In this document: positions 27,009-29,645 of the stretch, in pieces
Position numbering within the stretch: the stretch's first letter is position 1
How the letters are laid out: each line of letters opens with the position of its first letter
Assembly: GCF_024298765.1 (NCBI RefSeq)
Contig: NZ_CP101212.1
From: Escherichia coli
GTDB taxonomy: Bacteria; Pseudomonadota; Gammaproteobacteria; Enterobacterales; Enterobacteriaceae
Direction: 5' to 3' (one strand)
Length of the DNA: 64,000 nucleotides
Program-made: the position numbers and the translations under genes
Notes under the pieces: generated by a model
Told to the model about the DNA's origin: nothing
What the model saw: only the letters and a program-made list of their open reading frames with translations
Databases searched by the model: none

Positions 27009-27111
27009 GCAAAATTCCCCGTCTGTGAGGCGTGTTTTGTATCAAAAACAGGGGGGGCCAGATGCACCAGAAGGGTAAGCGTGCAGCAAGAACCGTATTG
27101 ACGGGGATGTG

Positions 27112-28650
27112 TTATTCAGTCGGCAGTGCTACGCGCCAGGGGAGCAGTTCGCCGACCCGGTTTATCGGCCAGTCGGCTATGACGTCAAGGACATAGCGGA
27201 GGTAGCTTTCTGGCTCCACTCCGTTCAGTTTGCACGTCCCGATCAGGCTGTACAGCAGCGCTCCCCGCTCTCCTCCATGATCCGAACCGAAGAACAGGTA
27301 GTTTTTGCGGCCCAGACTGACCATCCGCAACGCATTTTCAGCGATGTTATTGTCCGCCTCAGCCCAGCCATCATCTGCATAGTACGTCAGCGCCGGCCAC
27401 TGGTTCAGGGCGTATGCGAACGCTTTCGCCAGTTCTGAGTGTCGCGACAGGGTTTTCATCTTTTCACGCAGCCAGCTTTCCAGGGATTTCAGCAGCGGTT
27501 TCGTTTTCAACTGACGTTCGGCAAGGCGCTGCTCCGCCGTCATTCCCCTTATCTCTGCCTCGATGGCGTACAGTTCGCCGATCCGTTTCAGCGCTTCCTC
27601 CGTCAGGGCTGACGGGGTGCGAACGTGCACATCGTGGATTTTACGGCGGGCGTGAGCCCAACAGGCGGCTTCCGTTATCCGGCCATCCCGGTACAGCTCG
27701 TTGAACCCGGCGTATGCATCCGCCTGCAGTACACCACTGAACCCCGCAAGATGGGTCTGCGGATGGATGCCTTTTCTGTCCGGGCTGTAAGCGAACCACA
27801 CCGCCGGCGCCAGCGTTGACCCGGCGTTACGGTCGTCACGAACGTAGGTCCATAACCGCCCGGTCTTCGTTTTCTTATTGCCTGGCAACAGCACCGGGAC
27901 AGGCGTGTCATCAGCATGGAGCTTACCGTCAGTCAGCACATAGTCCTGAAGCGCTTCTTCCAGCGGTGACAGTAGCCGGCAGCATGCATCCACCCAGCCC
28001 GACAGCAGTGAACGACTCAGCTCCACGCCCTGGCGGCCGTACATTTCAGACTGGCGGTACAGCGGGGTGTGCTCTGCATACTTTGAGATCAGCACGCGGG
28101 CCAGCAGCCCCGGTCCTGCGATACCCCGCTCGATGGGCCGTGAAGGCGCGGGGGCCTGCACGATGGCATCGCACTGAGTACAGGCATGCTTTTCACGTAC
28201 AGTCCGGATAACCCGGAAGGCGCTGCGCATCAGCTCCAGCTGTTCGGCGGCATCCTCACCCAGATAGCTCAGCGAGCCTCCACATTCCGGGCAGCATGAC
28301 GCTGCCGGCAGCAGCCGTTTTTCATCGCGGGGGAGTGATTCGGGGAACGGTTTGCGGGTGCGGGTTTGACGCAGCGGGCGCTGCACGGCCGGGTCGTCAA
28401 CCCGACCGGTAAGGGTATCACTTTCTTTCTGAAGTGCCTTCAGGTCAGCTTCCATCTGTGCGATACGACGGGAGACTTTTTCCGAGCGGCTGCCGAAGTT
28501 CATCCGGCGCAGCTTATCCAGCTGTGCCTGCAGATGGTCTATTTCGCGTTCACGCTCGTTCAGCTTTTCCTGCAGGGCACGGTTCAGCGCCTCCTGTTCG
28601 GCAAGGAGACGTTTCAGTGCATTGATATCGTCAGGAAGTGAGCTGCTCAT
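27112..28650 (-). CDS. IS66-family transposase (orfC)
   Basis: 512 aa. Confidence 0.9.
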
Positions 28651-28698
28651 ACCGGGTATATTACCAGGCTCATTCAGCGTCGACCAGGATAAAGAGGC

Positions 28699-29046
28699 TT
28701 ACAACATAGTCAGGGACGTAAGCAGTCTTTTAGGCTGCCGCCAGTCGATACCTTCCAGCAGCATCGCCAGCTGTGCCGGTGTGAGGAACACTTTGCCATC
28801 CCGGGCTGACGGCCAGGCGAAGCGGCCGCGCTCCAGCCGTTTGGTCAGCAGACACAGTCCATCGCCGGTAGACCAGAGGAGCTTTACCTGACTGCCATTA
28901 CGCCCACGGAAGATAAAAACGTGACCTGACATCGGATCGTCTTTCAGCGTCGTCTGCACCTTTGCCGCCAGGCCGTTGAAGCCGTTTCTCATATCGGTGA
29001 TGCCAGCGACCAGCCAGATCTTTGTCCCTGATGGTAATGGGATCAA
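28699..29046 (-). CDS. IS66 TnpB (orfB)
   Basis: 115 aa. Confidence 0.9.
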   Translation of the reverse strand: MIPLPSGTKIWLVAGITDMRNGFNGLAAKVQTTLKDDPMSGHVFIFRGRNGSQVKLLWSTGDGLCLLTKRLERGRFAWPSARDGKVFLTPAQLAMLLEGIDWRQPKRLLTSLTML

Positions 29047-29447
29047 CGTTTGAGCTCCCGTATCAGCAGGTTCAGGATATTTTCACTGATGGCACCATTC
29101 AGACGGAGTGATCCGTGCCGGAACGTCACTTCACAGCTGATATTGAGTGATTCAGGTGTCGCAGTAGCTACAGGTTGTGACCGGGGGGAGGTTGTAGGGA
29201 CAACATCTTCGGCATCAAGTGTTATCGGGAGCAGCTCAGGCACGTTGTTTTCTGTTGTTGAAGGAGGACGTAGTTTTCCTTCGCGCCAGTACTGGCGCCA
29301 CTTGAACAGCAAATTATCGTTGATCCCATGCTCACGAGCGAGTTGCGCTACGGAGATCTCTGGTCGATGCGAGAGTTCAACCATTTTGATTTTGAACTCA
29401 ACGGGATAATTAGGGCTTTTTTTACGCACTGCGGTTAATGATTTCAT
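29043..29447 (-). CDS. IS66 orfA
   Basis: 134 aa, overlaps orfB. Confidence 0.85.
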   Translation of the reverse strand: MKSLTAVRKKSPNYPVEFKIKMVELSHRPEISVAQLAREHGINDNLLFKWRQYWREGKLRPPSTTENNVPELLPITLDAEDVVPTTSPRSQPVATATPESLNISCEVTFRHGSLRLNGAISENILNLLIRELKR

Positions 29448-29645
29448 GGATAGCGTCCACCATATTTGGTGTCCACTATTCTCTCAGGAATTTCAGGATC
29501 TGCCAGACGGTGCTGAGACGACGCTTACCCAGAAGGTGGATGATGAGGTTGTTTTTTGTATGAGGTGCTGCTTTTTTGTTCGCTGGCAGGCTTCAGGCGT
29601 GCGAATGCCTCCGGTGCGGGCCGGATTATTCAGAAGAGGTCACTT

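Follow-up and report, generated by a model that had tools for sequence, protein, structure and literature searches.

The closest described relatives of the locus reported here are the RepFIIA basic replicons of R100/NR1 and R1, in which copB, copA, tap, repA1, the spacer (CIS) and the origin oriR follow one another in that order. In R1 the origin is a 188-bp unit, and DnaA binds only after RepA has bound just downstream of the DnaA box (PMC5883639). RepA of R1 is described as acting mainly in cis, for which it requires a rho-dependent terminator in the spacer (PMC3495755, citing Masai and Arai 1988). Where FII is the working replicon, as in the TraDIS study of pEC958, repA1, copA and the origin take no transposon insertions (PMC4398462). 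ColV plasmids carry two replicons, repFIIA/FIC plus repFIB (PMC2626276), and a relaxed-replicon model, in which a replicon is free to gain mutations, is among the work cited in PMC4398462.

The DNA that we analysed, referred to as the window, is a 64-kb stretch (64,000 nucleotides) of an Escherichia coli ColV-type F plasmid, as seen from its iroBCDEN and tra genes. It carries on the minus strand an IncFII/FIC replicon of the R100 type, with the same gene order as R100/NR1 and R1 (Table 1), but, unlike these, it has ISEc22 inserted in the spacer, a 9.1-kb transposon of the Tn3 family that cuts oriR in two, and an extra 160-aa ORF between tap and repA1. We consider it very probable that this is a dismantled replicon, carried as a dead spare on a plasmid whose replication starts at another origin.

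Table 1. Features of the interrupted IncFII/FIC replicon and its surroundings (positions in the window)
Feature	Position	Strand	Remarks
pemK	15802-16134	-	NCBIfam match
pemI	16136-16393	-	NCBIfam match
CPBP-family protease (repA4 region)	16486-17139	-	NCBIfam match
Displaced distal oriR half	17715..17822	-	AT-rich, three TTTAAA-containing repeats; gap-free alignment to R100 and pG12a
Target duplication TGTAA, second copy	17823..17827	.	
Tn3-family transposon splitting oriR	17828..26928	.	9101 bp
Transposon tnpA	17851-20880	-	inside Tn3-family element
Second IS66-family IS	22373-25071		inside Tn3-family transposon; splits permease gene
arsR-like regulator	25484-25807	+	Tn3-family transposon cargo
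IS1	25854-26621		inside Tn3-family transposon
5-bp target duplication TGTAA (+ strand)	26929..26933	.	within native oriR
Origin-proximal oriR beside DnaA box	26934..26999	-	alignment to R100 and pG12a
DnaA box TTATCCACA of oriR	27000..27008	-	aligns to R100 oriR box
Distal CIS spacer	27009..27066	-	58 nt; alignment to R100
Target-site duplication CCAGAAGG, origin side	27067..27074	.	abuts ISEc22
ISEc22 (IS66 family)	27075-29528	-	2454 bp, complete; same orientation as repA1
ISEc22 transposase	27112-28650	-	512 aa, intact; IS66 transposase, above curated NCBIfam cut-off
ISEc22 tnpB	28699-29046	-	115 aa, intact; IS66 TnpB, above curated NCBIfam cut-off
ISEc22 tnpA	29043-29447	-	134 aa, intact; scores as IS66 TnpA
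Target-site duplication CCAGAAGG, repA1 side	29529..29536	.	abuts ISEc22
Proximal spacer (CIS), attached to repA1	29537..29645	-	109 nt; alignment to R100
repA1 initiator gene	29646..30503	-	intact, 285 aa; stop TGA 29646-29648
160-aa ORF, overlapping tap and repA1	30496..30978	-	weak homologue of RepA1 N-terminal region
tap leader peptide	30971..31045	-	24 aa; from translation
CopA antisense RNA gene	31063..31151	+	complete; copy-number and incompatibility determinant
copB / repA2	31277..31534	-	intact, 85 aa; ORF; transcriptional repressor of the replicon

The initiator belongs to the IncFII RepA family (TIGR03474, incFII_RepA, 579.9 bits with a cut-off of 446.9; NF010313, 619.7 bits) and is 95% identical to R100 RepA1 across all 285 aa with no gaps. 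Upstream of repA1 are the CopA RNA, CopB repressor and tap of an IncFII-family replicon: CopA matches Rfam RF00042 over model positions 1-92 of 92 (93.6 bits, gathering score 60), the copB product matches NCBIfam NF010256 over its full length (132.9 bits, cut-off 87), and sibling plasmids have the annotation “RepA leader peptide Tap” at the position equivalent to tap. The 160-aa ORF, which appears in siblings as the hypothetical protein WP_001273588.1, has no NCBIfam match and is 33% identical to RepA1 over 98 aa (BLASTP, E = 1e-8); relatives with this ORF between tap and repA1 are typed IncFIC. As copB, the CopA RNA, tap and repA1 are all intact, production of RepA1 and CopA-based incompatibility should still be possible.

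The element in the spacer was correctly recognised in a preliminary description of this DNA as a 2454 bp member of the IS66 family, bounded by an 8 bp duplication and lying between repA1 and oriR of an R1/R100-type replicon. It has the IS66 operon of tnpA, tnpB and transposase (tnpC) genes, with matches to NF033517, NF033819 and NF047595, and is 100% identical over 2454 bp to RefSeq copies annotated “ISEc22 family”, with zero differences from the copies in plasmids pG12a and FCI1. The ends are imperfect inverted repeats, both beginning GTAAGCGT when read inward, with the GTAAGCG start and 8-bp target duplication of the IS66 family. The duplicated octamer, CCAGAAGG, occurs only at these two places in the 64-kb window; the chance expectation is 1.8, and it is the placement at both ends of the IS, rather than the count, that carries the weight. 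Duplications of 8 bp also border eight other ISEc22 copies in which both flanks survive, and hundreds of IncFII plasmids have the empty site as one contiguous stretch with 100% identity. From the repA1 stop it is 109 nt to the octamer and 117 nt to the first base of the IS, so the location described earlier, 110 bp past the stop, holds and the figure becomes 109 nt. In the spacer, about 170-175 nt when uninterrupted, there are now 109 nt on the repA1 side and 58 nt on the origin side, besides the 8-nt target octamer. Its proximal part ends, directly before the IS, in a C-rich, G-poor tract, where 40 nt hold 14-15 C and 2-3 G. In its three-ORF layout, termini and duplication the element is an unremarkable ISEc22, the sole oddity being that the same FII spacer nucleotide was struck independently in two alleles.

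When both elements and one copy of each duplication are removed in silico, the remainder aligns with R100 without gaps at 990/1026 positions (96.5%), over a span that covers repA1, the spacer and oriR and continues to the CPBP (repA4-region) gene. The sequence TTATCCACA is the only perfect DnaA box in the window, and since at least one copy occurs in 34 of 100 shuffles, we accept it as the oriR box because of its homology to the R100 oriR box. The alignment thus upholds the earlier assignment of this box to oriR, while the distance from the repA1 stop once ISEc22 is removed, given before as about 168 nt, is 175 nt. The stretch 26929-27074, previously put forward for comparison with oriR and CIS, does contain the 58-nt distal spacer, the box and 71 nt of origin, but the AT-rich half of oriR is absent from it. 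We take the 66 nt at 26934..26999 to be the RepA-binding region. The boundaries of functional elements within oriR and CIS are provisional and follow in part a secondary source, and the distal end of oriR at 17715 assumes a 188-bp origin beginning at the DnaA box (size from PMC5883639).

Homology to oriR ends at 26929, and leftward of this is the end of the transposon. The DnaA box is separated from the break by 71 nt, and the AT-rich TTTAAA repeats would natively follow about 12 nt further on. A truncation of oriR associated with IS1, with homology ending at 26926, was considered and rejected, as the CPBP and pemK genes 9 kb away and the alignment with pG12a indicate a clean transposon insertion. 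The same two observations show that the missing half of oriR is still present: the CPBP, pemI and pemK genes (15802..17139) normally follow oriR, are in the same order in R100 and pG12a and are collinear with pG12a, and the AT-rich half now lies 9.1 kb off, from 17822 downwards. The near-identical relative pG12a is collinear with the window over 36600-26926 and then 17829-14838, and so brackets the 9.1-kb insert exactly. By homology to R100 the DnaA box, RepA-binding and AT-rich parts of the origin are thus all present, but separated.

The inserted element has perfect 38-bp inverted repeats (GGGGTCAGTTTGGATATCGAAAATTATTGTACGTTAAG) and TGTAA on either side, in keeping with the repeats of about 38 bp and 5-bp duplications of the Tn3 family, and its TnpA matches NF033527 at 1129 bits over model positions 2-954 of 954, as a Tn3-family DDE transposase of about 1000 aa. 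It shares with other Tn3-family transposons the 38-bp repeats ending ACGTTAAG, the 5-bp duplication and the size of the transposase, and differs from them in its cargo, an ArsR-like regulator and a permease, and in having IS1 and a second IS66-family IS nested within it. The resolvase region appears degenerate: there is no resolvase-size ORF of at least 80 aa between tnpA and the permease gene, and the annotation of an identical copy of the transposon has at this place a recombinase pseudogene that contains an internal stop. The same element is present at other, unrelated sites in pVM01 and 117 E. coli genomes, and we found no published name for the 9101-bp transposon. It is the larger of the two lesions and was absent from the preliminary description.

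A region so dense in repeats, with two IS1 copies and two IS66-family elements, can confuse assemblers, and mis-joined IS or transposon repeats might in principle conceal a real plasmid with an intact replicon. We find this hardly credible, as the ends of both insertions are complete and their target duplications exact, at the 8 bp and 5 bp proper to their families, and pG12a, which was sequenced independently, has ISEc22 junctions that match at every base.

The order of events would be that ISEc22 first entered the repA1-oriR spacer, with duplication of 8 bp, and that the 9.1-kb transposon later entered the origin, duplicating 5 bp; ISEc22 is put first because of the order seen in relatives. 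The transposon landed between the half with the DnaA box and RepA-binding region and the AT-rich half where the helix opens. As there is then no contiguous origin for RepA1 to open, the replicon should not fire, and loss of origin function is what the arrangement of the sequence leads us to infer.

Two milder outcomes have to be weighed against a dead replicon. The replicon might be impaired only, as the preliminary description has it, with 2.4 kb of IS parting a cis-acting RepA1 from an otherwise usable oriR; with the origin itself cut, any such effect of the added DNA is largely moot in this plasmid. ISEc22 is indeed within the spacer and directly follows a tract that resembles a rho loading site, and this explanation may fit pG12a and FCI1, where the IS is present and oriR unbroken; here, however, oriR is unusable, being split by the transposon, and for this plasmid we think it very unlikely. 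Alternatively the replicon could still be functional, with RepA1 and DnaA assembling on the 80 bp that remain and unwinding taken over by the AT-rich end of the transposon. Every trans-acting gene is intact, the spacer site struck twice independently might mark a permissive site, and the first 100 nt of the transposon end beside the RepA-binding half are 67% A+T, equal to the native distal origin, so that this end may serve as a makeshift unwinding region, which tells against a dead replicon. Nevertheless the native TTTAAA repeats and everything downstream are displaced by 9.1 kb, and ISEc22 lies inside repA1 of two siblings, from which it is plain that the replicon is not needed; a functional replicon is in our view extremely improbable. 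RepA has a footprint of about 100 bp, in which some eight helical turns lie between the first and the second binding site, and with this spacing the second site would fall beyond the break in oriR.

If the FII/FIC replicon is dead, maintenance of the plasmid most likely depends on a second replicon that lies outside the window and is RepFIB in the closest relative. There is no second replicon in the window itself among ORFs of at least 150 aa checked for initiators, these being iro genes, DAHP synthase, IS and transposon genes, pemK, CPBP, repA1 and tra genes. Plasmid pG12a, which has the same ISEc22 insertion and is typed IncFIB+IncFIC by MOB-suite, encodes a RepB-family (FIB) initiator 24.6 kb past the point that matches position 1 of the window, and its RepFIB region has no match in the window. 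The earlier suggestion to look for another replicon is thus answered indirectly, by a RepFIB about 25 kb beyond the edge of the window in pG12a, and not by any initiator within it; a working RepFIB on this plasmid is inferred by analogy with its relatives. Such redundancy would leave the FII/FIC replicon free to decay, and that it is dispensable in this plasmid family is clear from two plasmids from cats in which ISEc22 is inside the repA1 coding sequence (C21-2 by inspection and 2-C14-1 by an identical hit profile).

Six RefSeq records appeared to have an IS66 element beside repA, and only pG12a and FCI1 share the spacer site. The ISEc8 matches (pEc673-2 was inspected) and the ISEc22 of NZ_CP062915.1 were set aside, the IS being 2-3 kb downstream of repA, as were C21-2 and 2-C14-1, with ISEc22 within repA1. 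A single ancestral insertion for the window and pG12a on the one hand and FCI1 on the other was also rejected, as both copies of the duplication differ between the two (CCTTCTGG against CCTTCAGG), the flanks diverge right up to either end of the IS, and uninterrupted forms of each allele are found. On this comparison of sequences ISEc22 struck the same nucleotide of the spacer in a second allele by an independent event, in the same orientation. A metagenome scan for any IS66-type end at the spacer site gave one contig, and among papers mentioning ISEc22 no title or abstract concerns this insertion. It is doubtful that the IncFII repA1-oriR spacer is a true hotspot for ISEc22, with insertions that are a recurrent and possibly selected off-switch for FIC, or are tolerated. 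If it is, spacer insertions in FIB/FIC virulence plasmids such as pG12a and FCI1 would either switch off the FIC replicon or do no harm, and in the latter case an added distance of 2.4 kb to the origin could be bridged by cis-acting RepA even though the presumed rho-termination region is displaced.

Plasmid F has a RepFIC remnant interrupted by Tn1000, and decaying redundant IncF replicons are likewise cases of an FII-like replicon disabled by a mobile element beside another replicon. The locus described here differs from them in having its initiator and control elements untouched, with lesions only in the cis-acting DNA of the spacer and origin. Replicon decay by mobile elements is of a known kind, and our understanding of how these replicons work is unchanged. 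Because of the intact repA1 and copA, this plasmid would be scored as IncFIC/FII-positive by replicon-typing tools, in the way that MOB-suite types the sibling pG12a, and with the origin in two pieces 9 kb apart it follows that typing by rep genes only can include a replicon that is dead. By way of CopA, a replicon of this sort may yet be of consequence for incompatibility. For plasmid biologists there is the further, modest point that pG12a and FCI1 are a natural test of the distance tolerated by a cis-acting RepA.

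The FII/FIC replicon of the window is very probably a spare replicon in decay, its origin dead and the plasmid run from a RepFIB replicon outside the window. Its anatomy can be read directly. With the two mobile elements excised in silico, each along with one of its duplicated flanks, the restored sequence matches R100 at 990/1026 positions with no gaps; the aligned stretch starts at the end of repA1, crosses the spacer (the stretch from repA1 to the DnaA box) and the origin, oriR, and extends to the CPBP (repA4-region) gene. The replicon is on the minus strand, so that downstream of repA1 means falling coordinates.

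Features of the replicon region and its insertions (window coordinates unless stated)
Feature	Position	Strand	Remarks
copB (repA2)	31277-31534	-	
CopA antisense RNA	31063-31151	+	Rfam RF00042, 93.6 bits, full length
tap leader	30971-31045	-	
160-aa ORF	30496-30978	-	
repA1	29646-30503	-	stop codon 29646-29648
DnaA box	27000-27008		TTATCCACA
Tn3-family transposon	17828-26928		9101 bp; perfect 38-bp terminal inverted repeats GGGGTCAGTTTGGATATCGAAAATTATTGTACGTTAAG
IS1 inside transposon	25854-26621		
Nested second, different IS66-family element	22373-25071		own 8-bp duplication; interrupts the transposon's permease gene
Its transposase	22403-23974		523 aa
Its tnpB	23994-24341		
Its tnpA	24341-25018		225 aa
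repA1 stop codon, restored sequence	53-55		
ISEc22 entry, restored sequence	after 164		
DnaA box, restored sequence	231-239		
Transposon entry, restored sequence	after 310		
ISEc22 spacer site, window	27067-27074 / 29529-29536		
ISEc22 spacer site, FCI1	4065-4072 / 6527-6534		
ISEc22 spacer site, OERD01000418.1	8066-8091		

The preliminary description had placed an IS66-family element of 2454 bp, with an 8-bp duplication, in the repA1-oriR spacer of an R100-type replicon, and all of this is borne out. The element occupies 27075-29528, both ends read inward as GTAAGCGT, and CCAGAAGG occurs only twice in the window, each copy abutting one end. Its three ORFs are intact, share the strand of repA1 and score as TnpA, TnpB and transposase of the IS66 family; the element is 100% identical to copies named ISEc22 by RefSeq. 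The distances given earlier were close enough: we measured 109 nt rather than 110 from the repA1 stop to the duplicated octamer, and 175 nt rather than about 168 from the stop to the DnaA box with the IS removed. The empty site is real: hundreds of IncFII plasmids carry the restored junction uninterrupted at 100% identity.

There is a second insertion, in oriR itself. Homology to FII plasmids breaks off at about 26926-26929, also in all plasmids with the same ISEc22 insertion, and the approximately 305 bp to the left of the break co-occur with IS1 and with arsR-like and permease genes in unrelated plasmids, among them IncHI1B and IncX1/FIA plasmids and the ColV plasmid pVM01. The CPBP-family protease gene and pemK, the usual next genes after oriR in R100, were found by NCBIfam scan 9-10 kb off, at 15802-17139. 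That the break is an insert was settled by the near-identical sibling plasmid pG12a, whose replicon region aligns to window 36600-26926 and then resumes, with the distal half of oriR, at 17829-14838. The insert is a Tn3-family transposon, bounded by the 5-bp direct repeat TGTAA and encoding a full-length Tn3-family transposase (1129 bits), with the arsR-like and permease genes as other cargo. The same transposon is at another site in pVM01, there without the nested IS66-family element, and 117 complete E. coli genomes cover at least 80% of a 3.8-kb piece at its transposase end. The transposon-oriR junction was not found in PLSDB or RefSeq E. coli, so that, as far as those collections go, this insertion is peculiar to the window's plasmid. 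In pCP53-38k, which has a 100%-identical tnpA-tnpR segment, RefSeq calls the transposase frameshifted and the resolvase a pseudogene with an internal stop. The window's transposase ORF matches the whole Tn3 transposase model and the element is found at different sites across plasmids; it may be mobilised in trans.

Misassembly is an unlikely explanation for either insertion, as both have exact duplications whose lengths suit their families, and the ISEc22 junctions recur in pG12a.

The transposon entered 71 nt beyond the DnaA box and about 12 nt ahead of the AT-rich stretch of oriR, which holds three TTTAAA-containing repeats. In R1 the origin is described as a unit of 188 bp, where DnaA occupies its box only with RepA bound immediately downstream (PMC5883639), and the R100 origin is given as 149 bp in another paper (PMC2797631). 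Under either definition the transposon cuts the origin into about 80 bp and about 108 bp. RepA protects approximately 100 bp adjoining the DnaA box, the helix opens at the AT-rich repeats and leading-strand priming begins a few hundred bp beyond them, regions that would now be 9.1 kb away. Where the transposon now adjoins the RepA-binding half, its first 100 nt contain 67% A+T, as much as the native sequence, and this end could in principle serve as a substitute unwinding element; we think this unlikely.

The earlier interpretation was that the IS merely weakens the cis-action of RepA on a usable origin. This fails for the window, where the origin is not usable, although it may still fit pG12a and FCI1, an isolate with ISEc22 at the same spacer site. 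ISEc22 is inserted where a C-rich, G-poor tract ends (14-15 C and 2-3 G per 40 nt); the tract looks like a rho loading site, and RepA cis-action reportedly requires a rho-dependent terminator in the spacer (Masai and Arai 1988, as cited in PMC3495755).

With regard to the replicon genes, RepA1 has 285 aa, is 95% identical to R100 RepA1 with no gaps, and scores above the cut-offs of the IncFII RepA models in the NCBIfam scan. The 160-aa ORF overlaps the tap leader on one side and repA1 on the other, as if the three were translationally coupled in series. It shows weak homology to the N-terminal region of RepA1 (33% over 98 aa, E = 1e-8), has no NCBIfam match and is absent from R100, where tap overlaps repA1 directly. 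Rfam also places AS-pc02 ('antisense to pHK01_099'; 32566-32751, plus strand, 181.9 bits) and a sok antitoxin RNA (31955-32113, minus strand, 90.2 bits) between copB and finO.

The window is from a ColV-type F plasmid. It has the salmochelin genes iroBCDEN (3189-12747), a gene for DAHP synthase and, at about 33.0-64.0 kb, the F transfer region, running from finO to traI, traD and traG. Positions 1-14840, which extend from the iss locus as far as the DAHP synthase gene, are collinear at 99.9-100% with pG12a, which comes from an E. coli isolate from chicken liver, is typed IncFIB+IncFIC, and has the same ISEc22 insertion with no differences in IS or flanks. Another replicon had been proposed as a check: the window's ORFs include no second initiator gene, and one is present on pG12a, where a RepB-family (RepFIB) initiator adjoins sitABCD, 24.6 kb from the equivalent of window position 1, in a segment with no match in the window. 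ColV plasmids have a repFIIA/FIC replicon by the transfer region and repFIB near sitABCD (PMC2626276).

In the window an IS1 at 14841-15608 directly links the pemK side of the replicon region with the DAHP synthase/iroN region. The two are far apart in pG12a, in which the DAHP synthase gene is followed by colicin V genes, tsh and a multidrug-resistance region, and the equivalent IS1 by a mercury-resistance operon. This suggests an IS1-mediated deletion or rearrangement at that point.

The following account of how the replicon lost function, and of which replicon runs the plasmid, is inferred. ISEc22 would have entered the spacer first, since its insertion is common to pG12a, and the transposon would have split the origin later. 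The trans-acting and regulatory genes are intact; RepA1 and CopA are probably still being produced, and incompatibility through CopA should continue. The origin, by contrast, should not fire, and RepFIB outside the window most likely drives replication.

FII is the replicon in use in pEC958, and there saturating transposon mutagenesis gave very few insertions in copA, repA1 or the origin (insertion index <0.05; PMC4398462). The window's plasmid family shows the reverse: ISEc22 lies within the repA1 coding sequence, with duplication GGTACTGC, in two cat plasmids (strain C21-2 inspected, strain 2-C14-1 an identical hit only), which can therefore do without the FII/FIC replicon. Metagenome contig OERD01000418.1 has ISEc22 with the spacer site on one side and unrelated AT-rich DNA with a 287-aa ORF on the other (5560-5618), and no duplication at the ISEc22 ends, which indicates an IS-mediated rearrangement that parted oriR from repA1 altogether in that lineage.

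In FCI1, a urinary isolate, and OERD01000418.1, ISEc22 is at the window's exact spacer nucleotide in identical orientation. The IS is identical, whereas the duplicated sequence is CCTTCAGG rather than the window's CCTTCTGG, and the flanks differ at 10/175 nt before the IS and 8/138 nt after. Both spacer alleles are also found as empty sites in other plasmids, and there were therefore two independent insertions at one site. Six further sites have the duplications CATTGCCC, GCTTCTCG, GTTCGGTG, GGTTTTGC, ACTTCAGT and GTTTGATG; taken with both spacer alleles, they suggest a loose CTTC-W-G core. In a phage tail gene of chromosome NZ_CP074764.1 the right flank of ISEc22 has CTGTTTTTGAT after a run of Cs, as does the spacer site (window 27030-27066) at a different offset from the IS end, which is why chromosomal BLAST matches extended about 30 nt beyond the IS; the shared sequence could be a target cue or a coincidence. 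Repeat insertion points to ISEc22 target preference, or to recurrent selection for switching the replicon off, and leaves the main conclusion unaltered.

The R100-type replicon, ISEc22 and the Tn3-family transposon are all already known, and knockout of a redundant replicon by mobile elements is a known theme in multi-replicon F plasmids, the classic case being plasmid F itself, whose RepFIC remnant is interrupted by Tn1000. The element described earlier is thus real and correctly located, its interpretation was incomplete, and the whole picture is an ordinary one. Typing based on rep genes would count this origin-dead replicon as present.
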